Below the pieces are notes generated by a model. That model was given only the letters and a program-made list of their open reading frames with translations. It ran no database searches and was not told the origin of the DNA. Position numbers and translations under genes: made by a program. Source: a virus. From it: a DNA stretch of 15,804 bases. The stretch lies in the UHGV virus genome UHGV-0041830. One strand, 5' to 3'. Shown here piece by piece: positions 1,079-15,804 of this stretch (the first letter of the stretch is position 1; each line of letters begins with the position of its first letter).

Positions 1079-1824
1079 TTGATACCGAAAAGGCCTTTGA
1101 ATATATCGCCGGCGCGCCACAGGAGCAGAAGGATAATCCGCTTATTAATATTCTGGAGAAGTTTTCCAGCTGGTATGACACGAATAACGTGACACTGGGC
1201 GGTGTCAAAATTCCGCACCTTTTCCCTGGTGATGATCTGAAACTACAGACTGCGCAGGATTCAGACAATGGATTTTCTGCGCTTGAACAGGCGCTGCTGC
1301 GGTATATCGCCGCCGGTCTTGGCGTTTCCTACGAACAGTTGTCCCGTGATTACTCGAAGGTCAGTTACTCAAGTGCCCGCGCCTCCGCCAATGAGTCGTG
1401 GCGCTATTTTATGGGGCGGCGAAAATTTATTGCGTCCCGGCTGGCCACGCAGATGTTTTCCTGCTGGCTGGAAGAGGCACTTCTTCGGGGGATTATTCGT
1501 CCGCCACGGGCACGTTTTGATTTTTATCAGGCGCGATCAGCCTGGTCACGGGCAGAGTGGATTGGTGCCGGAAGAATGGCCATTGACGGGCTCAAGGAAG
1601 TCCAGGAATCAGTGATGCGCATTGAGGCCGGACTGAGCACGTATGAGAAAGAGCTGGCGCTGATGGGCGAGGATTATCAGGACATTTTCCGCCAGCAGGT
1701 CAGGGAATCTGCAGAGCGGGAAAAAGCCGGACTCTCACGTCCGGTGTGGATAGCGCAGGCGTATCAGCAGCAGATAGCGGAGAGTCGCAGGCCGGAAGAG
1801 GAGACAACACCACGTGAGACGTAA
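1079..1824 (+). CDS. B: Portal protein gpB, C-terminal part on post-gap segment
   Basis: In-frame continuation of the portal sequence (codon boundary at 1081), stop TAA 1822-1824. The first ~78 codons repeat the last codons before the gap. Confidence 0.9.
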
Positions 1825-3297
1825 TCTTTCACACATTATTGCAGCAGCATTCAATGAACCGCTGCTTCTGGAGCCCGCCTATGCGCGGGTTTTCTTTTGC
1901 GCGCTGGGGCGCGAGATGGGGGCAGCAAGTCTTTCGGTACCACAACAGCAGGTACAGTTTGATGCTCCCGGAATGCTGGCTGAAACGGACGAGTACATGG
2001 CCGGAGGTAAACGACCGGCCCGTGTTTACCGGGTGGTGAACGGTATTGCGGTACTGCCGGTGACCGGCACGCTGGTGCACCGGCTGGGTGGTATGCGGCC
2101 ATTTTCCGGAATGACAGGCTATGACGGCATTGTCGCCTGTCTTCAGCAGGCAATGGCGGATAGCCAGGTGCGGGGCGTACTGCTGGACATTGACAGTCCG
2201 GGCGGGCAGGCCGCCGGCGCGTTTGACTGCGCTGACATGATTTACCGCCTCCGTCAGCAGAAGCCGGTCTGGGCACTGTGCAATGACACGGCCTGTTCTG
2301 CAGCCATGCTGCTGGCGTCGGCCTGCTCCCGACGGCTGGTTACCCAGACATCCCGTATCGGTTCCATTGGCGTGATGATGAGCCATGTCAGCTATGCCGG
2401 TCATCTGGCGCAGGCCGGTGTGGATATCACGCTGATTTACTCAGGGGCGCACAAGGTGGATGGCAATCAGTTTGAAGCGTTGCCGGCAGAGGTTCGCCAG
2501 GACATGCAGCAGCGGATTGATGCGGCGCGCCGGATGTTTGCCGAAAAAGTGGCGATGTATACCGGTCTGTCTGTTGATGCAGTCACGGGAACAGAGGCCG
2601 CTGTTTTTGAAGGTCAGTCCGGCATTGAGGCCGGGCTGGCGGATGAATTAATCAATGCGTCGGATGCCATCAGTGTGATGGCCACGGCGCTGAACAGTAA
2701 TGTCAGAGGAGGCACTATGCCGCAATTAACTGCAACGGAAGCCGCCGTGCAGGAGAACCAGCGAGTGATGGGGATCCTGACATGCCAGGAAGCGAAAGGA
2801 CGTGAACAGCTTGCCACGATGCTGGCAGGACAACAGGGCATGAGCGTTGAACAGGCCCGGGCGATTCTGGCCGCGGCGGCACCGCAGCAGCCGGTGGCAT
2901 CCGCGCAGAGTGAAGCCGATCGCATTATGGCGTGTGAAGAAGCGAACGGTCGTGAACAACTGGCGGCAACGCTGGCGGCGATGCCGGAGATGACGGTGGA
3001 AAAAGCCCGCCCGATCCTGGCGGCTGCACCACTGGCGGATGCCGGGCCCTCGCTTCGTGATCAGATCATGGCCCTGGATGAGGCAAAAGGGGCAGAAGCG
3101 CAGGCTGAAAAACTGGCGGCCTGCCCGGGAATGACCGTGGAGAACGCCCGGGCTGTGCTGGCTGCGGGATCAGGTAAGGCAGAACCGGTCTCTGCATCCA
3201 CAACCGCCATGTTTGAACATTTCATGGCGAACCATTCACCGGCAGCGGTACAGGGTGGCGTGGCACAGACGTCAGCAGACGGTGATGCGGACGTGAA
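1814..3297 (+). CDS. C: Prohead protease/scaffold gpC (ClpP/S49-like serine peptidase family), 3' side cut by N10 gap
   Basis: GTG start at 1814 overlapping the portal stop by 11 nt. N-terminus RRNLSHIIAAAFNEPLLLEPAYARVFFCALG resembles lambda C (MTAELRNLPHIASMAFNEPLMLEPAYARVFFCAL...). C-terminal third carries Nu3-like repeats. Confidence 0.88.
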
Positions 3298-3307
3298 NNN
3301 NNNNNNN
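3298..3307. other. Assembly gap (N10); flanks 2988-3297 and 3308-3617 are ~310-bp near-identical copies
   Basis: Run of 10 n. Post-gap sequence agatgacggtggaaaaagcccgcccgatcctgg... repeats 2988 onward with roughly 8% substitutions. Confidence 0.95.
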
Positions 3308-3639
3308 AGATGACGGTGGAAAAAGCCCGCCCGATCCTGGCTGCTTCACCGCAGGCGGATGCCGGACCATCACTCCGTGATCAGATCATGGCACTGGATG
3401 AGGCAAAAGGGGCTGAGGCGCAGGCTGAACAGCTGGCTGCCTGCCCGGGAATGACAGTGGAGAGCGCCCGGGCTGTGCTGGCTGCGGGATCAGGTAAGGC
3501 CGAACCGGTCTCTGCATCCACAACCGCCCTGTTTGAACATTTCATGGCGAATCATTCACCGGCAGCGGTGCGGGGTGGCGTGTCACAGACGTCAGCAGAC
3601 GGTGATGCGGACGTGAAAATGCTCATGGCCATGCCATGA
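3308..3639 (+). CDS. nu3: 3' end of gpC / Nu3 scaffolding region (post-gap segment, 5'-partial)
   Basis: Codon boundary at 3310, stop TGA 3637-3639. Translation (...LRDQIMALDEAKGAEAQAEQLAACPGMTVESARAVLAAG...ADGDADVKMLMAMP) matches the pre-gap C tail and the lambda C/Nu3 C-terminus. Confidence 0.78.
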
Positions 3640-3675
3640 AGTCAGTGCTGACCATCAATATGAGGTTTTAACAAA

Positions 3676-4023
3676 ATGGTGACGAAAACCATCACTGAAC
3701 AGCGTGCGGAAGTACGTATTTTTGCCGGTAATGATCCGGCTCATACCGCCACAGGCAGCAGCGGGATTTCCTCGCCAACACCGGCACTGACGCCCCTGAT
3801 GCTGGATGAAGCCACCGGGAAACTGGTGGTCTGGGATGGACAGAAAGCCGGTAGTGCGGTTGGCATACTGGTACTGCCGCTTGAAGGCACAGAGACGGTG
3901 CTGACCTATTACAAGTCGGGGACCTTTGCGACGGAGGCAATCCGCTGGCCTGACAGTGTGGATGAACACAAAAAGGCAAATGCCTTTGCCGGCACAGCCC
4001 TGAGTCACGCGGCTCTGCCGTAA
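3676..4023 (+). CDS. D: Head decoration protein gpD
   Basis: 115 aa. GAGG Shine-Dalgarno ~10 nt upstream of ATG. Motifs NDPAHTATG, TPLMLD, KLVVWDG, AVGIL, YKSGTF, KANAFAGTA match lambda D (110 aa). Confidence 0.92.
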   Translation: MVTKTITEQRAEVRIFAGNDPAHTATGSSGISSPTPALTPLMLDEATGKLVVWDGQKAGSAVGILVLPLEGTETVLTYYKSGTFATEAIRWPDSVDEHKKANAFAGTALSHAALP

Positions 4024-4080
4024 CACGTTATCAGGCCACCATGGTGACCTGACTGATTTCTGAATGAAAGGAACTGATTT

Positions 4081-5109
4081 ATGGGATTGTTTACGACCCG
4101 CCAGTTACTCGGTTATACCGAACAAAAAGTTAAATTTCGTGCGCTGTTTCTGGAGCTGTTTTTCCGCCGTACGGTGAATTTCCACACCGAAGAGGTGATG
4201 CTGGACAAAATTACCGGAAAAACGCCGGTGGCGGCCTATGTCTCCCCGATCGTTGAAGGAAAAGTGCTTCGCCATCGCGGTGGTGAAACCCGCGTGTTAC
4301 GTCCGGGCTACGTCAAGCCGAAACACGAATTTAATTACCAGCAGGCGGTTGAGCGCCTTCCTGGTGAAGATCCGGCTCAGCTGAACGACCCGGCCTACCG
4401 TCGTCTGCGTATCATTACCGATAACCTCAAACAGGAAGAGCACGCCATTGTCCAGGTGGAAGAAATGCAGGCGGTGAATGCCGTGCTGTATGGCAAATAC
4501 ACCATGGAAGGGGATCAGTTTGATACTGTCGAGGTGGATTTCGGGCGCTCTGAAGGAAATAACATTGAGCAGGCTGACGGTAAAAAATGGTCTGAGCAGG
4601 ACCGTGATACGTTTGATCCGACGCATGATATTGACCTCTACTGCGATCAGGCCAGCGGCCTTGTGAATATCGCCATTATGGACGGTACGGTCTGGCGTCT
4701 GCTGAATGGCTTTAAGCTGTTCCGCGAAAAACTGGATACCCGTCGCGGCTCAAATTCACAACTCGAAACGGCAGTGAAAGATCTGGGCGCAGTGGTGTCC
4801 TTCAAGGGGTATTACGGCGATCTGGCCATTGTGGTGGCGAAAACGTCTTATGTGGCAGAGGACGGTACCGAAAAACGTTATCTGCCGGAGGGCATGCTGG
4901 TGTTGGGGAATACGGCGGCAGAGGGGATTCGTTGCTATGGTGCCATTAAGGATGCACAGGCGTTGTCTGAAGGAGTGGTGGCTTCTTCCCGTTACCCGAA
5001 ACACTGGCTGACCGTGGGCGATCCGTCCTGTGAATTCACCATGACGCAGTCCGCTCCGCTGATGGTGCTGCCGGATCCGGATGAGTTTGTGGTGGTACAG
5101 GTGAAATAA
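4081..5109 (+). CDS. E: Major capsid protein gpE
   Basis: 342 aa (lambda E 341 aa). AAAGGA RBS. Long identical stretches to lambda E (YVSPIV, PGYVKPKHE, DPAYRR, IVQVEEMQAV, KLDTRRGSNS, LETAVKDLG, TMTQSAPLM, LPDPDEFV). Confidence 0.95.
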   Translation: MGLFTTRQLLGYTEQKVKFRALFLELFFRRTVNFHTEEVMLDKITGKTPVAAYVSPIVEGKVLRHRGGETRVLRPGYVKPKHEFNYQQAVERLPGEDPAQLNDPAYRRLRIITDNLKQEEHAIVQVEEMQAVNAVLYGKYTMEGDQFDTVEVDFGRSEGNNIEQADGKKWSEQDRDTFDPTHDIDLYCDQASGLVNIAIMDGTVWRLLNGFKLFREKLDTRRGSNSQLETAVKDLGAVVSFKGYYGDLAIVVAKTSYVAEDGTEKRYLPEGMLVLGNTAAEGIRCYGAIKDAQALSEGVVASSRYPKHWLTVGDPSCEFTMTQSAPLMVLPDPDEFVVVQVK

Positions 5110-5160: not shown

Positions 5161-5544
5161 ATGGCAACAAAAGAAGAAAATCTGAATCGTCTTCGTCAAC
5201 TGGCTGACCTGCTGGGGCGCGAGGCGGATATGTCGGGGAGTGCTGCGGATATTGCTCAACGTGTGTCTGAGTGGGAAGAGGAGCTTGCTGTTTCCCCGGA
5301 GGGCATTATGCACTCTGATGAGAGCGGGGCTGATCAAAATCACACAGACGATGGTGAGCAGTTGAACAACACGGATGCTCCGGATGATGTTAAAGCCGTC
5401 CGGGTACGGAAGTGCCTGCAAGTAATGGGGTATTGCCCGGAGACAGGTCGTCCCGTTGAGCTGGCGTTACGGGGTATGCGTGTTCTGGTGCCATCATCAC
5501 TGGCAACGGCCATGATACAGCACGGAACGGCTGAATATGCGTGA
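5161..5544 (+). CDS. FI: DNA packaging / head assembly protein FI
   Basis: ATG at 5161 preceded by AGGAGG. Size and position match lambda FI (132 aa). The ORF-track start at 5113 would read through the terminator hairpin and is not used. Confidence 0.8.
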   Translation: MATKEENLNRLRQLADLLGREADMSGSAADIAQRVSEWEEELAVSPEGIMHSDESGADQNHTDDGEQLNNTDAPDDVKAVRVRKCLQVMGYCPETGRPVELALRGMRVLVPSSLATAMIQHGTAEYA

Positions 5545-5890
5545 TTTTCAGAATGCCTTTGATGCTGCCCTCGCCGGGGTAGACAGTACGATCGTTGAAG
5601 TGATGGGGCTCTGTGCGCAGTTCACCTCGGGGGCACAGTGTGGCAGCGAAGTTCAGGGGGTTTTTGATGATCCGGAGTCGCTGGGGTTTGCCGGTGGCGG
5701 GGTCCGTATTGAAGGAAGCAGCCCGTCATTATTTGTGCGGACGGATACGGTTCGTGCCGTGCGGCGTGGTGACACGCTGACCATTAATGGTGAGATATTC
5801 TGGGTGGATCGTGTTTCTCCGGATGACGGGGGCAGCTGTTATCTCTGGCTCAACCGTGGTCAACCACCCGCAGTTAACCGGCGACGATAA
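5537..5890 (+). CDS. FII: Head-tail connector / head completion protein FII
   Basis: 117 aa, same length as lambda FII. GVFDDPE, GVRIEGSSPSLFVRTD, RRGDTLTI, FWVDRVSPDDGGSC, LWL, PPAVNRRR all match. Start overlaps the FI stop by 8 nt. Confidence 0.92.
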   Translation: MRDFQNAFDAALAGVDSTIVEVMGLCAQFTSGAQCGSEVQGVFDDPESLGFAGGGVRIEGSSPSLFVRTDTVRAVRRGDTLTINGEIFWVDRVSPDDGGSCYLWLNRGQPPAVNRRR

Positions 5891-5905
5891 ACGCAGGGTG
5901 AAATT

Positions 5906-6439
5906 ATGGCGATAAAAGGGCTTGATCAGGCGATTGACAATCTGAGCCGGGTTCGTAAAAACGCCATTCCGGCGGCTTCAGCAATGGCCATTAACCGCGT
6001 GGCCACAACGGCGATTAATCAGTCTTCATCACAGGTTGCCCGGGAGACAAAGGTTCGCCGGAAACTGGTTAAGGAACGGTCCAGACTGAAACGGGCGACG
6101 GTCAGAAATCCGAATGCCAGAATTATCGTTAACCGCGGTGATCTCCCTGTGATTAAGCTGGGGATCAGGATGCTGGGGCGTCGCCCGAACAGCATACTTA
6201 AAGCCGGTCAGCATCGGTATCAGCGGGCATTTATTCAGAGATTAAAAAATGGTCGCTGGCATGTCATGCAGCGTGTGGCCGGGAAAAACCGTTACCCCAT
6301 TGATGTGGTGAAAATCCCGATGGCGGCCCCACTGAAACAGGCATTTGATGAGAATGTTGACCGTATCCGGCGTGAACGCCTGCCTAAAGAACTGGCATAC
6401 GCGCTGAAACAACAACTGAGGATTGCAATAAAACGATGA
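5906..6439 (+). CDS. Z: Tail completion protein Z
   Basis: 177 aa basic protein in the lambda Z position between FII and U. AGGGTG RBS. Stop overlaps the U start (ATGA). Confidence 0.88.
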   Translation: MAIKGLDQAIDNLSRVRKNAIPAASAMAINRVATTAINQSSSQVARETKVRRKLVKERSRLKRATVRNPNARIIVNRGDLPVIKLGIRMLGRRPNSILKAGQHRYQRAFIQRLKNGRWHVMQRVAGKNRYPIDVVKIPMAAPLKQAFDENVDRIRRERLPKELAYALKQQLRIAIKR

Positions 6440-8476: not shown

Positions 8477-11030
8477 TCTTGTTATTGACCTGAGTCTGGA
8501 TGCTGTCCGTTTCGATGAGCAGATGAGCCGGGTAAGGCGTCATTTTTCAGGTCTGGATACCGACGCCAGAAAAACCGCCAGTGCTGTTGAACAGGGCCTG
8601 AGCCGCCAGGCGCTGGCTGCACAAAAAGCCGGGATTTCCGTCGGGCAGTATAAAGCGGCCATGCGAACCCTGCCCGCACAGTTTACGGATATCGCCACGC
8701 AGCTTGCCGGTGGTCAGAATCCCTGGTTGATCCTGCTGCAACAGGGCGGTCAGGTGAAGGACTCCTTCGGCGGGATGATCCCCATGTTCAGGGGGCTTGC
8801 CGGTGCGATCACCCTGCCGATGGTCGGGGTCACCTCGCTGGCGGTGGCGACAGGTGCGCTGGCGTACGCCTGGTACCAGGGCGACGCCACGCTTTCAGAA
8901 TTTAATAAAACGCTGGTCCTTTCCGGCAATCAGGCCGGACTGACTGCCGATCGTATGCTGACGCTCTCAAGAGCCGGGCAGGCAGCAGGGCTGACGTTTA
9001 ACCAGGCGAGAGAGTCACTGGCAGCCTTGGTGAATGCCGGTGTGCGTGGTGGTGAACAGTTTGATGCCATCAACCAGAGTGTCGCGCGTTTTGCGTCTGC
9101 ATCCGGTGTGGAGGTGGATAAAGTCGCTGAAGCCTTCGGGAAGCTGACCACTGACCCGACGTCGGGACTGATGGCGATGGCGCGCCAGTTCCGTAACGTG
9201 ACGGCAGAGCAGATTGCGTATGTTGCACAGCTGCAGCGTTCCGGAGACGAGGCCGGGGCATTGCAGGCGGCGAACGATATCGCCACGAAAGGCTTTGATG
9301 AGCAGACCCGTCGCCTGAAAGAAAACATGGGAACACTGGAGACCTGGGCGGATAAAACAGGGAAGGCATTCAAATCGATGTGGGATGCCATTCTGGATAT
9401 CGGTCGTCCGGAATCCTCAGCGGATATGCTCGCCAGTGCGCAGAAGGCATTTGATGAGGCGGATAAAAAATGGCAGTGGTACCAGAGCCGGAGCCAGCGC
9501 CGGGGAAAGACCTCCTCTTTTCGTGCGAACCTTCAGGGGGCATGGGATGACCGGGAAAATGCCCGTCTGGGTCTGGCAGCGGCCACGCTGCAGTCGGATA
9601 TGGAAAAAGCCGGTGAACTGGCGGCAAGGGACAGGGCTGAGCGTGAGTCGTCACAGCTGAAGTATACCGGAGAGGCGCAGAAGGCGTATGAGCGCCTGCA
9701 GACGCCGCTGGATAAATATACCGCCCGTCAGAAAGAGCTGAATAAGGCCCTGAAAGACGGAAAAATCCTGCAGGCGGATTACAACACGCTGATGGCGTCG
9801 GCAAAAAAGGATTATGAATCGACGCTGAAAAAGCCGTCAGGTGTGAAGGTGTCTACCGGTGAGCGCCAGGAAGACCGGGCGCATGCAGCCCTGCTGGCGC
9901 TTGAAACCGAGCTCAGGACGCTGGAAAAACACAGCGGTGTGAATGAGAAAATCAGCCAGCAGCGCCGGGATTTATGGGAAGCGGAAAGTCAGTATGTGGT
10001 CCTGAAAGAGGCCGCCACGAAACGGCAGTTATCTGAGCAGGAAAAATCCCTGCTGGCTCATGAGAAAGAGACGCTGGAGTACAAACGCCAGCTGGCTGAG
10101 CTGGGAGACAAGATTGAACACCAGAAGCGGCTGAATGAGCTGGCACAGCAGGCGGCGCGGTTTGAACAGCAGCAAAGCGCGAAGCAGGCGGCAATCAGCG
10201 CAAAAGCCCGCGGCCTCACCGACCGTCAGGCGCAGCGGGAGTCGGAAGAGCAGCGCCTTCGTGAGGTGTACGGTGATAATCCGGCTGCGCTGGCGAAGGC
10301 CACATCGGCACTGAAGAACACCTGGTCTGCGGAGGAGCAGCTTCGTGGAAGCTGGATGGCCGGGATGAAGTCCGGCTGGGGAGAGTGGGCGGAAAGTGCG
10401 ACGGACAGTTTTTCGCAGGTTAAAAGTGTGGCCACGCAGACCTTTGACGGTATTGCACAGAATATGGCGGCGATGCTGACCGGCAGCGAACAGAACTGGC
10501 GGGGATTCACCCGTTCCGTGCTGTCCATGATGACAGAAATTCTGCTTAAGCAGGCAATGGTGGGGATTGTCGGGAGTATCGGCAGCGCTATTGGCGGGGC
10601 TGTTGGTGGCGGCGCATCCGCGTCAGGCGGTACAGCCATTCAGGCCGCTGCGGCGAAATTCCATTTTGCAACCGGAGGATTTACGGGAACCGGCGGCAAA
10701 TATGAGCCAGCGGGGATTGTTCACCGTGGTGAATTTGTCTTCACAAAGGAGGCAACCAGCCGGATTGGCGTGGGGAATCTCTATCGGCTGATGCGCGGCT
10801 ATGCCACCGGTGGTTATGTCGGTACACCGGGCAGTCTGGCTGACAGCCGGTCGCAGGCGTCCGGGACGTTTGAGCAGAATAACCATGTGGTGATTAACAA
10901 CGACGGCACGAACGGGCAGATAGGTCCGGCTGCTCTGAAGGCGGTGTATGACATGGCCCGCAAGGGTGCCCGTGATGAAATCCAGGCACAGATGCGCGAT
11001 GGTGGTCTGTTCTCCGGAGGTGGACGATGA
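8457..11030 (+). CDS. H: Tail tape measure protein H
   Basis: 857 aa (lambda H 853 aa). Long near-identical runs to lambda H (PVGDLVIDLSLDA, GISVGQYKAAMR, NPWLILLQQGGQVKDSFGGMIPMFRGLAGAITLPMVG, the C-terminal glycine-rich segment GGFTGTGGKYEPAGIVHRGEFVFTKEATSRIGVGNLYRLMRGYATGGYVG). Start overlaps the T-frame end by 20 nt. Confidence 0.95.
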   Translation: MSQPVGDLVIDLSLDAVRFDEQMSRVRRHFSGLDTDARKTASAVEQGLSRQALAAQKAGISVGQYKAAMRTLPAQFTDIATQLAGGQNPWLILLQQGGQVKDSFGGMIPMFRGLAGAITLPMVGVTSLAVATGALAYAWYQGDATLSEFNKTLVLSGNQAGLTADRMLTLSRAGQAAGLTFNQARESLAALVNAGVRGGEQFDAINQSVARFASASGVEVDKVAEAFGKLTTDPTSGLMAMARQFRNVTAEQIAYVAQLQRSGDEAGALQAANDIATKGFDEQTRRLKENMGTLETWADKTGKAFKSMWDAILDIGRPESSADMLASAQKAFDEADKKWQWYQSRSQRRGKTSSFRANLQGAWDDRENARLGLAAATLQSDMEKAGELAARDRAERESSQLKYTGEAQKAYERLQTPLDKYTARQKELNKALKDGKILQADYNTLMASAKKDYESTLKKPSGVKVSTGERQEDRAHAALLALETELRTLEKHSGVNEKISQQRRDLWEAESQYVVLKEAATKRQLSEQEKSLLAHEKETLEYKRQLAELGDKIEHQKRLNELAQQAARFEQQQSAKQAAISAKARGLTDRQAQRESEEQRLREVYGDNPAALAKATSALKNTWSAEEQLRGSWMAGMKSGWGEWAESATDSFSQVKSVATQTFDGIAQNMAAMLTGSEQNWRGFTRSVLSMMTEILLKQAMVGIVGSIGSAIGGAVGGGASASGGTAIQAAAAKFHFATGGFTGTGGKYEPAGIVHRGEFVFTKEATSRIGVGNLYRLMRGYATGGYVGTPGSLADSRSQASGTFEQNNHVVINNDGTNGQIGPAALKAVYDMARKGARDEIQAQMRDGGLFSGGGR

Positions 11031-11040
11031 AAACCTTCCG

Positions 11041-11050
11041 NNNNNNNNNN
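11041..11050. other. Assembly gap (N10); flanks 10948-11040 and 11051-11143 are 93-bp near-identical copies (H 3' end and M start)
   Basis: Run of 10 n. atgacatggcccgcaagggtgcccgtgatgaaat... appears on both sides with a few substitutions. The pre-gap side already contains the H stop and an M start codon (ATG 11027). Confidence 0.95.
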
Positions 11051-11129
11051 ATGACATGGCCCGCAAGGGTGCCCGTGATGAAATTCAGACACAGATGCGT
11101 GATGGTGGACTGTTCTCCGGAGGTGGACG

Positions 11130-11459
11130 ATGAAAACCTTCCGCTGGAAAGTGAAACCCGGGATGGATGTGACATCGGCTCCTTCCGTCAGGGAGGTGCG
11201 CTTTGGTGATGGCTATTCCCAGCGTGCGCCTGCCGGGCTGAACGCTGACCTGAAAACGTACAGCGTGACGCTGTCTGTCTCCCGTGAGGAGGCCACGGCG
11301 CTGGAGTCGTTTCTGGCTGAGCACGGGGGCTGGAAGGCCTTTCTGTGGACGCCGCCTTATGGTTACAGGCAGATAAAGGTGACCTGCGCAAAATGGTCGT
11401 CGCAGGTCAGTATGTTGCGTGTTGGGTTCAGCGCAGAGTTTAAACAGGTGGTGAACTGA
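11130..11459 (+). CDS. M: Tail tip protein M
   Basis: 109 aa, same length as lambda M. Start ATGA-overlaps the (duplicated) H stop. Stop TGA overlaps the L start by 1 nt. Confidence 0.9.
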   Translation: MKTFRWKVKPGMDVTSAPSVREVRFGDGYSQRAPAGLNADLKTYSVTLSVSREEATALESFLAEHGGWKAFLWTPPYGYRQIKVTCAKWSSQVSMLRVGFSAEFKQVVN

Positions 11460-12161: not shown

Positions 12162-12905
12162 ATGACAGAGACAGAATCAGCGATTCTGGCGCACGCCCGG
12201 CGATGTGCGCCAGCGGAGTCGTGCGGCTTCGTGGTAAGCACGCCGGAGGGGGAAAGATATTTCCCCTGCGTGAATATCTCCGGTGAGCCGGAGGCGTATT
12301 TCCGGATGGCTCCGGAGGACTGGCTGCAGGCAGAGATGCAGGGTGAGATTGTGGCGCTGGTCCACAGTCATCCCGGTGGTCTGCCCTGGCTGAGTGAGGC
12401 CGACCGGCGGCTGCAGGTGCAGAGTGATTTGCCGTGGTGGCTGGTCTGCCGGGGGGCGATTCATAAGTTCCGCTGTGTGCCGCATCTCACCGGGCGGCGC
12501 TTTGAGTACGGGGTGACAGACTGTTACACACTGTTCCGGGATGCTTACCATCTGGCGGGGATTGAGATGCCGGATTTTCATCGCGGGGATGACTGGTGGC
12601 GTCACGGTCAGAATCTCTATCTTGACAATATGGAGGCTACTGGTTTTTACCGTGTCGCACTGACAGAGGCGCAGCCGGGCGATGTGCTGCTGTGCTGTTT
12701 TGGTTCATCGGTGCCGAATCACGCCGCCATTTACTGCGGCGACGGTGAGCTGCTGCACCATATTCCTGAACAACTGAGTAAACGAGAGAGGTATACCGAC
12801 AAATGGCAGCGACGCACACACTCCCTCTGGCGTCACCGGGAATGGCACGCATCTGCCTTTACGGGGATTTGCAACGATTTGGCCGCCGCATCGACCTTCG
12901 TGTGA
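12162..12905 (+). CDS. K: Tail tip assembly protein K, JAB/MPN (JAMM) metalloprotease-like plus NlpC/P60 domains, full-length reading
   Basis: ATG at 12162 is 4 nt after the L stop, open to TGA at 12903-12905. JAMM motif HSHPGGLPWLSEAD (12364-12403) with upstream ESCG (12206-12217). Cys in VTDCYTLF and His residues downstream fit an NlpC/P60 core. The shorter reading from the internal ATG at 12306 is about 199 aa. Confidence 0.82.
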   Translation: MTETESAILAHARRCAPAESCGFVVSTPEGERYFPCVNISGEPEAYFRMAPEDWLQAEMQGEIVALVHSHPGGLPWLSEADRRLQVQSDLPWWLVCRGAIHKFRCVPHLTGRRFEYGVTDCYTLFRDAYHLAGIEMPDFHRGDDWWRHGQNLYLDNMEATGFYRVALTEAQPGDVLLCCFGSSVPNHAAIYCGDGELLHHIPEQLSKRERYTDKWQRRTHSLWRHREWHASAFTGICNDLAAASTFV

Positions 12906-13444
12906 AAACGGGGGCTGAAGCCATCCGGGCACTGGCCACACAGCTCCCGGCGTTTCGTCAGAAACTGAGCGATGGCTGGTATCAGGTACGGATTGCCGGG
13001 CGGGATGCAGGAGAAACCGAATTATCATCCCGTCTTAATGAGCCGCTGGCAAATGGTGCCGTGATCCACATCGTGCCGCGTCTTGCGGGAGCAAAAAGTG
13101 GCGGTGTGTTTCAGGCGGTGCTGGGTGCGGCGTTGATTGCTACGGCAATCTGGATGCCGGGGATCAGTATCGCTTTCAGTGACATTCTCTTTTCAATGGG
13201 TGCGGCGATGACGCTTGGTGGTGTGGCGCAGATGCTGGCACCGAAAGCCAGAACTCCCCGTACACAGACAACGGATAACGGCAAACAGAACACCTATTTC
13301 TCCTCACTGGATAACATGGTTGCCCAGGGCAATGTCCTGCCTGTTCTGTACGGTGAAATGCGCGTGGGGTCACGTGTGGCATCTCAGGAGATCAGCACGG
13401 CAGATGAAGGGGATGGTGGTCAGGTTGTGGTAATTGGGCGGTAA
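12803..13444 (+). CDS. I: Tail tip assembly protein I (variant allele), N-terminal ubiquitin-like domain ending in Gly-Gly
   Basis: 213 aa. N- and C-terminal thirds match lambda gpI. The central segment (DAGETELSSRLNEPLANG...AVLGAALIATAIWMPGISIAFSDILFSMGAAMTLGG) differs from the second copy at 14195-14775. Overlaps K by 103 nt. An alternative start at ATG 12842 is possible. Confidence 0.85.
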   Translation: MAATHTLPLASPGMARICLYGDLQRFGRRIDLRVKTGAEAIRALATQLPAFRQKLSDGWYQVRIAGRDAGETELSSRLNEPLANGAVIHIVPRLAGAKSGGVFQAVLGAALIATAIWMPGISIAFSDILFSMGAAMTLGGVAQMLAPKARTPRTQTTDNGKQNTYFSSLDNMVAQGNVLPVLYGEMRVGSRVASQEISTADEGDGGQVVVIGR

Positions 13445-13517
13445 TATTATTTTACTCATGTTCTAACTAATTTAATATTTATATCGAACACTGATAATTA
13501 TTCTATTGGTTAGCTAT
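13445..13517 (+). promoter_or_regulatory. AT-rich putative promoter/leader of the inserted lipoprotein gene
   Basis: Extremely AT-rich 73 bp. Candidate -35 TTTAAT (13471-13476) and -10 GATAAT (13493-13498) with 16-bp spacer. Weak, unvalidated prediction. Confidence 0.3.
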
Positions 13518-13856
13518 ATGAACAAAACGATTTTATTCTGCACGATTATTGCCTTAACAGGATGTAAATCTTTGGATTACGTAAAATCCGGAAAACCTGT
13601 AATGGAAGGTAATTCATTAAAAAATATTGATGAATTGTCAGGCTGCATATCCAGACAATGGGCTGGTAATGGAACACCTATAACATCCCTTCCTATTGAG
13701 AATGGGGTAAGCCTTTTAGTTCCACAGGCTATGGGGGGATATGATGTTGTGCTTGATATCAAAAAAGCAGGAAATGGCAGTAGTTTTACTCTTTATGAAC
13801 GTGTACCAGCATTAACGCCAAAAATTTTTGCTGATAGTGTTAATGCATGTAAATAA
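13518..13856 (+). CDS. Predicted outer-membrane lipoprotein of unknown function (moron inserted between tail genes I and J)
   Basis: 112 aa. N-terminus MNKTILFCTIIALTG|CKS is a textbook signal peptidase II signal: basic n-region, hydrophobic core, lipobox L-T-G-C, and Lys (not Asp) at +2 after the lipidated Cys. Two further Cys residues. Tandem TAA TAG stops. ~36% GC against GC-rich flanks. Start could alternatively be TTG 13506. Confidence 0.75.
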   Translation: MNKTILFCTIIALTGCKSLDYVKSGKPVMEGNSLKNIDELSGCISRQWAGNGTPITSLPIENGVSLLVPQAMGGYDVVLDIKKAGNGSSFTLYERVPALTPKIFADSVNACK

Positions 13857-13880
13857 TAGTTAATCCTGTCGTAACTCATG

Positions 13881-13908
13881 AGCCGCCTTTTGGGCGGCTT
13901 TGTTGTTT
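13881..13908 (+). terminator. GC hairpin plus T-tract between the moron and J (conserved in the second I-J junction)
   Basis: AGCCGCC (13881-13887), loop TTTTG, GGCGGCT (13893-13899), then TTGTTGTTT. Lies 14 nt upstream of the J ATG. Confidence 0.45.
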
Positions 13909-13922
13909 ATGGAGTGTGAGGA

Positions 13923-14184
13923 ATGGGTAAAGGAAGCAGTAAGGGGCATACCCCGCGCGAAGCGAGGGACAACCTGAAGTCCACGCAGCTGCTGAGTGTG
14001 ATCGATGCCATCAGCGAAGGGCCGGTTGAAGGTCCGGTGGATGGATTAAAAAGCGTGCTGCTGAACAGTACGCCGGTGCTGGACAGTGAGGGGAATACCA
14101 ATATATCCGGTGTCACGGTGGTGTTCCGGGCAGGTGAGCAGGAGCAGACACCGCCGGAGGGATTTGAATCCTCCGGCTCCGAGA
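13923..14184 (+). CDS. J: Central tail fiber / tip attachment protein J, N-terminal 87 codons (copy 1, cut by N10 gap)
   Basis: MGKGSSKGHTPREARDNLKSTQLLSVIDAISEGPVEGPVDGLKSVLLNSTPVLDSEGNTNISGVTVVFRAGEQEQTPPEGFESSGSE matches the lambda J N-terminus almost exactly. GAGGA RBS. Confidence 0.92.
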
Positions 14185-14194
14185 NNNNNNNNNN
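14185..14194. other. Assembly gap (N10) joining a segment ending in J to a segment beginning inside the K/I overlap
   Basis: Run of 10 n. Post-gap sequence accttcgtgtgaaaacgggggctgaagcc... corresponds to 12894 onward, so this is not a simple overlap: the following segment is an alternative copy of the I-J locus. Confidence 0.95.
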
Positions 14195-14775
14195 ACCTTC
14201 GTGTGAAAACGGGGGCTGAAGCCATCCGCGCACTGGCCACACAGCTCCCGGTGTTTCGTCAGAAACTGAGCGACGGCTGGTATCAGGTACGGATTGCCGG
14301 GCGGGACGTCAGCACGTCCGGGTTAACGGCGCAGTTACATGAGACTCTGCCTGATGGCGCTGTGATTCATATTGTTCCCAGAGTCGCCGGGGCCAAGTCA
14401 GGTGGCGTATTCCAGATTGTCCTGGGGGCTGCCGCCATTGCCGGATCATTCTTTACCGCCGGAGCCACCCTTGCAGCATGGGGGGCAGCCATTGGGGCCG
14501 GTGGTATGACCGGCATCCTGTTTTCTCTCGGTGCCAGTATGGTGCTCGGTGGTGTGGCGCAGATGCTGGCACCGAAAGCCAGAACTCCCCGTACACAGAC
14601 AACGGATAACGGCAAACAGAACACCTATTTCTCCTCACTGGATAACATGGTTGCCCAGGGCAATGTTCTGCCGGTTCTGTACGGTGAAATGCGCGTGGGG
14701 TCACGCGTGGTTTCTCAGGAGATCAGCACGGCAGACGAAGGGGATGGTGGTCAGGTTGTGGTGATTGGTCGCTGA
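14195..14775 (+). CDS. I: Tail tip assembly protein I (lambda-like allele), 5'-truncated by gap
   Basis: Codon boundary at 14197, stop TGA 14773-14775. Central segment DVSTSGLTAQLHETLPDGAVIHIVPRVAGAKSGGVFQIVLGAAAIAGSFFTAGATLAAWGAAIGAGGMTGILFSLGASMVLGG matches lambda gpI as I recall it. Confidence 0.88.
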
Positions 14776-14793
14776 TGCAAAATGTTTTATGTG

Positions 14794-14820
14794 AAACCGC
14801 CTCCGGGCGGTTTTATCGTT
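14794..14820 (+). terminator. GC hairpin plus T-tract upstream of J (second copy)
   Basis: AAACCGCC (14794-14801), loop TCCG, GGCGGTTT (14806-14813), perfect 8-bp stem followed by TATCGTTT. Same position relative to the J start as 13881-13908. Confidence 0.45.
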
Positions 14821-14835
14821 TATGGAGCATGAGGA

Positions 14836-15220
14836 ATGGGTAAAGGCAGCAGTAAGGGGCATACCCCGCGCGAAGCGAAGGACAACCTGAAATCATCCCA
14901 GATGCTGAGCGTGATAGACGCCATCAGCGAAGGGCCGGTTGAAGGTCCGGTGGATGGATTAAAAAGCGTGCTGCTGAACAGTACGCCGGTGCTGGACAGT
15001 GAGGGGAATACCAATATATTCGGCGTCACGGTGGTGTTCCGGGCCGGTGAGCAGGAGCAGACTCCGCCGGAGGGATTTGAATCCTCCGGCTCCGAGACGG
15101 TGCTGGGTACGGAAGTGAAATATGACACGCCGATCACCCGGACCATCACGTCGGCAAACATCGACCGTCTGCGCTTTACCTTCGGTGTGCAGGCACTGGT
15201 GGAAACCACCTCAAAGGGGG
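14836..15220 (+). CDS. J: Tail tip attachment protein J, N-terminal part (copy 2, pre-gap)
   Basis: Near-identical to 13923-14184 and to the lambda J N-terminus. Continues ...TVLGTEVKYDTPITRTITSANIDRLRFTFGVQALVETTSKG. Confidence 0.92.
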
Positions 15221-15230
15221 NNNNNNNNNN
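15221..15230. other. Assembly gap (N10); flanks 15128-15220 and 15231-15323 are 93-bp near-identical copies within J
   Basis: Run of 10 n. cgccgatcacccggaccatcacgtcggcaaacat... is present on both sides with substitutions. Confidence 0.95.
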
Positions 15231-15804
15231 CGCCGATCACCCGGACCATCACGTCGGCAAACATTGACCGTCTGCGTTTTACTTTCGGCGTGCAGGCACT
15301 GGTGGAAACCACCTCAAAGGGGGACAGGAATCCATCGGAAGTCCGCCTGCTGGTTCAGATTCAACGTAACGGTGGCTGGGTGACGGAAAAAGACATCACC
15401 ATTAAGGGCAAAACCACGTCGCAGTATCTGGCCTCGGTGGTGGTGGATAACCTGCCGCCGCGCCCGTTTAATATCCGGATGCGCAGGATGACGCCGGACA
15501 GCACCACAGACCAGTTGCAGAACAAAACGCTCTGGTCGTCATACACCGAAATCATCGATGTGAAACAGTGCTACCCGAACACGGCACTGGTCGGCGTACA
15601 GGTGGACTCGGAGCAGTTCGGCAGCCAGCAGGTGAGCCGTAATTATCATCTTCGCGGGCGCATTCTGCAGGTGCCGTCGAACTATAACCCGCAGACGCGG
15701 CAATACAGCGGTATCTGGGACGGAACGTTTAAGCCAGCATACAGCAACAACATGGCCTGGTGTCTGTGGGATATGCTGACCCATCCGCGCTACGGCATGG
15801 GGAA
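15231..15804 (+). CDS. J: Tail tip attachment protein J, continuation, 3'-partial at window edge
   Basis: Codon boundary at 15233. Translation ...PITRTITSANIDRLRFTFGVQALVETTSKGDRNPSEVRLLVQIQRNGGWVTEKDITIKGKTTSQYLASVVVDNLPPRPFNIRMRRMTPDSTTDQLQNKTLWSSYTEIIDVKQCYPNTALVGVQVDSEQFGSQQVSRNYHLRGRILQVPSNYNPQTRQYSGIWDGTFKPAYSNNMAWCLWDMLTHPRYGMG matches lambda J residues ~100-300. Confidence 0.92.

Follow-up and report, generated by a model that had tools for sequence, protein, structure and literature searches.

The window analysed here, a stretch of 15,804 nucleotides from the viral genome UHGV-0041830, contains head and tail genes of a lambdoid prophage of the phage 21 type (Jouyvirus). The three related modules in the scaffold part of its prohead protease/scaffold gene are the Tri boxes of phage 21, which are already annotated, and their triplication was thus already known. 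The explanation favoured as a whole is that a phage 21-type gene carries Tri boxes that would serve as tethering modules, and that the gap interrupting this gene in the window is a scaffolding artefact; in this combined form it is considered very probable. The features are listed in Table 1.

Table 1. Features of the protease/scaffold locus in the window.
Feature	Position	Strand	Remarks
Prohead protease/scaffold gene (homologue of lambda C and phage 21 gene 5)	1814..3297	+	First 494 codons, pre-gap contig
Peptidase S49 domain, aa 146-293	2249..2692	+	Pfam PF01343, E = 3.6e-35; aligns throughout with lambda C
RBS GAGGAGG of the nested scaffold gene	2706..2712	+	Annotated gene 6 RBS in M81255.1 and OL657228.1
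Nested in-frame scaffold gene (phage 21 gene 6, Nu3-type), by annotation	2717..3297	+	193 of 200 codons
Unit 1, Tri1 box	2762..2878 (GenBank feature falls on 2784-2887)	+	aa 317-355; M81255.1 repeat_region 5542-5645
Unit 2, Tri (Tri2) box	2921..3028 (GenBank feature falls on 2924-3034)	+	aa 370-405; M81255.1 repeat_region 5682-5792
Unit 3, Tri3 box	3062..3169 (GenBank feature falls on 3065-3178)	+	aa 417-452; M81255.1 repeat_region 5823-5936
10-N scaffold spacer between two contigs	3298..3307	.	One of five identical spacers
Gene 3' end, second allele (latter half of Tri2, Tri3, C-terminal tail, stop)	3308..3639	+	Redundant with 2988-3297

The open reading frame starting at 1814 is truncated by the run of N, and its protein is 98.6% identical to a 501-aa protein of ev017. 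When 1814..2987 is joined to 3308..3639 the gene is completed in frame, with a length of 1506 nt coding for 501 aa and a stop codon at 3637-3639 on the post-gap contig; the locus is one gene of 501 codons. The merged protein is identical to phage 21 gp5 at 495 of 501 positions. The protein encoded from 1814 was assigned to PHROG 53 (phrog_53), head maturation protease, with an E value of 8.7e-225, and its repeat region matched, in three stretches, PHROGs families labelled head scaffolding or capsid assembly protein. Membership of the S49 peptidases is supported by the Pfam domain and by the CSA and HKVDG motifs, which align with those of lambda C and which we take to be the catalytic residues of the protease. 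The gene also occupies the expected place in the head operon, the order being portal, C, decoration protein and major capsid protein, as annotated in ev017, ATCC 11775 and phage 21; the major capsid protein of the window (4081-5109) is 60% identical to lambda E. An ATG at 2717, in the frame of C and preceded by GAGGAGG, is collinear with the annotated start of phage 21 gene 6. Judging by this annotation and by the sequence signals, the C-terminal 200 residues would be made separately as a scaffold protein.

The three modules that the first-pass annotation had described in the C-terminal part of the gpC homologue are confirmed by statistical comparison, and they do lie, as it had proposed, in the scaffold part common to this protein and the Nu3-type scaffold. 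Local alignments of the unit pairs gave BLOSUM62 scores of 103, 82 and 97, compared with a mean of about 25 (standard deviation about 5) for shuffled sequences; the corresponding z values are 11.7-15.9, and none of 2000 shuffles reached the observed score. Of the 44 columns in the alignment of all three units, 16 show no variation; the units have a conserved core of about 40 aa and are spaced by 50 aa and then 47 aa. A recent DNA tandem repeat was considered and rejected: the units share only 61-68% DNA identity, the longest exact run between any two of them is 8-10 nt, and Tandem Repeats Finder did not detect them, reporting only a 320-nt pseudo-repeat made by the gap. The intact 1506-nt gene was found in ev017, in the closed genome of E. 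coli ATCC 11775 and in phage 21, and the presence of all three units in these sequences, that of phage 21 being a Sanger sequence, rules out the concern raised at first pass that the number of units might be an artefact of assembly.

Prior annotation of these units is found in GenBank record M81255.1, "Bacteriophage 21 head gene operon", which presumably stems from Smith and Feiss 1993 (Gene 126:1). It annotates gene 5 with a length of 1506 nt and, nested within it, gene 6 of 603 nt with its own ribosome-binding site. Gene 6 holds three repeat_region features named "Tri1 box", "Tri box" and "Tri3 box", with the note "function unknown; putative". The DNA alignment of this record with the window is free of gaps, and the three GenBank features fall on the three units. 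The first-pass annotation had missed this relation to the phage 21 type of gene. In the second phage 21 record, OL657228.1, the same pair of genes is labelled as capsid protease/scaffolding protein and scaffolding protein. A tblastn search of phage genomes with the scaffold part of ev017 returned 20 records with at least 80% coverage, including phage 21 (M81255.1 and OL657228.1, both 99.5% identical to the query), ev017, 4A7, D2 and the PhiR series. A literature search, outside which lay the phage 21 head-gene paper and the gpNu3 paper of Medina et al., retrieved no discussion of the Tri repeats.

In order to determine how widespread the module is, a profile of the three units was compared exhaustively with 1.84 billion representative proteins, and 490 clusters were matched at E <= 1e-3. 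The profile was then rebuilt from the hits and used to count units in the best 150 of the 490 clusters; in these, 132 proteins contain one unit, 13 contain two, five contain three and none contains more. The carriers are either protease-scaffold fusions of 400-550 aa, in which some 80 residues separate the unit from the C-terminus, or scaffold-like proteins of 100-220 aa. In many phages the module forms the conserved core of a Nu3-type scaffold domain, and it is present as a single copy in most of them, including lambda. Among three-unit proteins from E. coli, Salmonella and farther relatives, down to 47% identity, each unit is nearest to its counterpart at the same position, and the single unit of lambda is nearest to unit 1. 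This positional correspondence, together with the 61-68% DNA identity between the units, indicates that the triplication is old and that each position has been maintained. On sequence comparison, the triplication is a lineage trait of the clade comprising phage 21 and Gifsy and not a recent expansion. Separately, a Logan contig (SRR25568644_270; 5001-5588 of locus L092) encodes a protein of 195 aa that has two Tri-type modules and lacks a protease domain. Just downstream of its gene are a 297-aa open reading frame that matches no family and a tape-measure gene, a small terminase gene is nearby, and the protein may be the stand-alone scaffold of a small phage or phage satellite.

Structure prediction pictures the units as small, independent helical modules on flexible linkers. 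AlphaFold2 run without an alignment produced helix-turn-helix units with a mean pLDDT of 68. With an alignment of 26 sequences the mean pLDDT was 72.8, and each unit was modelled as three short helices with a block pLDDT of 80-86, connected by linkers with values from below 50 to about 69 and followed by an additional helix and an acidic tail modelled as disordered. The pTM of 0.29 means that no fixed arrangement of the units is predicted. A Foldseek search of the PDB with both models yielded nothing below E = 3.6, a sequence search of the PDB yielded only chance matches to the Lac repressor, and in Pfam there was no family for the module, only DUF7178 below threshold. Against BFVD, Foldseek gave high-probability matches that were local only, all of them to S49 prohead proteases of other phages; the match to the S49 protease of Synechococcus virus S-ESS1 extends over 47 columns with an rmsd of 1.0 A and 40% identity.

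The mechanism we infer for the modules is one of tethering. Each module, folded independently on its flexible linker, would anchor both scaffold and protease to the inside of the shell as it assembles, through binding to the major capsid protein, through self-association, or both. Three copies would provide multivalent attachment, while the linkers would be open to the protease, so that the scaffold could be degraded after assembly. The units belong to the full-length protease and, by the annotation and start signals, also to the nested scaffold, and their protein sequence is conserved across distant phages. The Tri module is also found in stand-alone scaffold-like proteins and in PHROGs labelled head scaffolding or capsid assembly. 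In lambda, C may degrade the scaffold Nu3, and yeast two-hybrid interactions of Nu3 with itself, with C and with E have been reported (PMC3224144). Binding of the capsid protein is tentatively regarded as the main role of the module.

A somewhat less likely reading is that the modules serve mainly in scaffold-scaffold oligomerisation or in recruitment of the portal, and do not bind the capsid protein. Lambda Nu3 is required for incorporation of the portal protein B into procapsids and is listed as a multimer (PMC3224144), and the module is 40-60% identical across phages with differing capsid proteins, as would fit self-association or a conserved partner. However, the Nu3-E two-hybrid interaction in the same source speaks for contact with the capsid protein, and the predicted model shows no packing between the units (pTM 0.29).

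Within the tethering proposal, the units may be more than interchangeable duplicates of one another, since each is conserved in its own position, which plain multivalency does not predict. Closed genomes also contain natural forms in which unit 2 is absent or reduced to one half, and these were counted against the proposal. It is conceivable, though rather doubtful, that the Tri module is a widespread and uncharacterised capsid-targeting domain of S49 protease and scaffold proteins, ranging over at least 490 clusters from prophages of enterobacteria to a cyanophage, with the copies in the clade of phage 21 and Gifsy possibly contacting different partners or subunits. If this were true, copy number would tune the bridging of capsomers by the scaffold.

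The interruption of the gene is best understood from the window as a whole. Five stretches of N, each exactly 10 long, interrupt the window, at 1069-1078, 3298-3307, 11041-11050, 14185-14194 and 15221-15230. At four of these gaps the contig ends overlap, being 93-97% identical over 93-310 nt. The segment 3308-3617 is collinear with 2988-3297 and 92.9% identical to it, with 22 mismatches over 310 nt, no indels and seven amino acid changes. Likewise, 835-1068 and 1079-1312 are 95% identical, as are, at 96%, both 10948-11040 and 11051-11143 and the pair 15128-15220 and 15231-15323. Around the remaining gap, 14195-15220 covers once more the tail K/I/J region at 12894-14184, at 78-94% identity. Over the overlap at 3298 the sequence of phage 21 alternates between the pre-gap and post-gap variants, and this mosaic indicates that the variants are alleles of the same segment between which recombination occurs. 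The gap would have arisen where two contigs with different alleles of one segment were set end to end with 10 Ns between them, and we infer that the alleles most likely come from sibling prophages. With the same overlaps at all the gaps and up to five copies of the gene per genome, the break at 3298 is a generic result of the presence of several related prophages. The window is thus a chain of allelic contigs, and apparent duplications beside its N runs are not to be taken as biology. The 109-codon open reading frame at 3310-3639, which starts at an internal methionine of unit 2 (MTVEKAR...), is not a gene in its own right, being the 3' end of gene C as carried by the second contig.

The first-pass annotation had instead suggested that the repeats within the gene confused the assembler and that the post-gap segment represents the last unit in diverged form, an explanation that is now very improbable. 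The gap does fall in the same gene, many database copies of the protein are "partial" at contig ends, and the post-gap contig begins inside unit 2, at most 1 nt from the boundary of a 150-nt duplication seen in two other assemblies. However, 128 nt separate the last unit from the break downstream of it, the units go undetected by Tandem Repeats Finder, the exact matches between them (8-10 nt at the longest) are too short to affect an assembler, and the other four gaps, in non-repetitive genes that include portal and tail genes, have the same signature of overlapping alleles. Nor is the post-gap piece a copy of the last unit, since it is collinear with the pre-gap sequence from the middle of Tri2 onward for 310 nt, well past unit 3. 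It is likewise very improbable that the source genome really carries the 3' end twice as a 320-nt tandem duplication, because the period reported by Tandem Repeats Finder (320, with 2.0 copies and 90% matches) counts the 10 Ns, closed genomes and phages have the 1506-nt gene with the decoration gene directly after it, and every other gap of the window shows the same type of overlap.

The gene is carried by about a third of E. coli genomes. An 898-nt probe (2400-3297) matched 1870 of 5426 complete E. coli genomes in one to five places each, and a 106-nt probe demanding an intact unit 2 matched 1817 of the 5426, in 2858 places. In a scan of IMG/VR for diversity in copy number, all 80 loci among the matches listed were of the three-unit type and 97-99% identical. 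The best match of window positions 2400-4200 in the complete E. coli genomes was 99.2% identical before the gap and 98.3% after it, and an exact match to either side was found in none of the 5426.

Several length variants of the protein were also found, and those shorter than 501 aa differ in unit 2. A 482-aa variant lacks the second half of this unit, with its junction at the short direct repeat CTGGCGGC; in KE700344.1, 57 nt are gone between the two copies of CTGGCGGC that lie at 2959-2966 and 3017-3024 of the window. A 472-aa variant lacks the first half of unit 2, and a 451/452-aa variant lacks the whole of it. Frequencies were determined with 60-nt junction probes, counting full-length matches only, as most matches were 39-nt halves; counts with 84-nt junction probes were inflated by joined half-matches and are left out. 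By this measure the shortened forms are rare, the 482-aa junction being present in 56 of the 5426 complete E. coli genomes and the 452-aa junction in one to three. One exact 482-aa protein sequence (P0275) is present on at least 1000 contigs; the form was found in no isolated phage of the collection. At the other extreme, a 551-aa form with apparently four units occurs in two assemblies, LS992828.1 (2674-2972 of locus L087) and UNQM01000006.1 (2447-2745 of locus L088). It results from a perfect 150-nt tandem duplication, three residues out of register with the period of the Tri repeat, and in both copies an N falls precisely on the junction. Ongoing expansion was considered for this form and downgraded on account of the register and of the N at the junction, and the four-unit form is a probable assembly artefact. 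The start of the post-gap contig of the window (3308) lies within 1 nt of the boundary of this duplication.

The location of the deletion junctions at short direct repeats such as CTGGCGGC, and the description of the Tri boxes in GenBank as DNA repeat regions of unknown function, would suit a reading in which the boxes act as DNA, either as cis-acting sites or as recombination substrates, with the protein similarity being secondary; this is highly improbable, given that the identity between the units is low at the DNA level and that in distant phages the module is visible only as protein, as in the cyanophage S49 protease with 40% amino acid identity and across the 490 clusters.

As the triplication is already in the record of the phage 21 head operon and the gene is among the commonest prophage genes of E. 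coli, the discovery value of these data is small. The module itself has neither a Pfam family nor a solved structure in spite of the classic setting of lambda C and Nu3, and this old gap in the description of lambdoid head assembly is of modest interest.

Comparison with the scaffold of P22 concerns the type of element involved. In a preprint (bioRxiv 10.1101/2022.12.13.520362), the helix-turn-helix of the P22 scaffold is described as essential for coat binding. This C-terminal coat-binding domain is, like the Tri module, a small helical element of a scaffold, and the resemblance between the two is proposed as an analogy only. P22 has one copy at the extreme C-terminus, whereas the gene of the window has three internal copies followed by a further tail of about 50 residues. 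Neither sequence comparison nor Foldseek found a match to the module in the PDB, a weak negative in view of the very small size of the domain and the moderate confidence of the models. As there is no detectable homology, the Tri module is not filed in the P22 family.

The C protein of lambda is a homologous S49 protease, with 58% identity over the alignment and the same gene position as in the window. Alignment with it bore out the statement in the first-pass annotation that lambda C has fewer copies of the module, since it has one unit, at aa 357-399, and not three. The estimate that the protein of the window is some 60 aa longer than the 439 aa of lambda C proved accurate too, the length here being 501 aa, about 62 aa more. 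As in the window, the C-terminal region of lambda C is common to protease and scaffold, and its one module is homologous to unit 1. Unlike the protein of the window, lambda C has an extra linker of about 36 residues ahead of the module, and its C-terminal tail is unrelated. The scaffold starts also differ, with the RefSeq start of lambda Nu3 at C residue 239, a position other than the start of phage 21 gene 6. This Nu3 start (NC_001416 5132; MDATRQ) has a weak RBS, and the corresponding codon in the window gene (2534) encodes isoleucine. The start of phage 21 gene 6 (2717 in the window, with GAGGAGG) aligns with Met309 of lambda C, which also has a strong RBS, AGGAGGG. Lambda and phage 21 therefore have their scaffold starts annotated at positions that are not homologous.

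The homologues of gpC in Gifsy-1 and other Salmonella prophages have three modules in the same order as in the window, each nearest to its positional match, at only 54-69% identity in the scaffold part. Closest of all is phage 21, in which the same gene, nested start, RBS and three repeats are at positions collinear with those of the window. The two differ by allelic substitutions only, apart from the splitting of the window gene by the gap and the double presence of its 3' end. An effect of the repeat expansion on head assembly had been suggested at first pass as a possibility. Phage 21 is a viable lambdoid phage with exactly the architecture found in the window.
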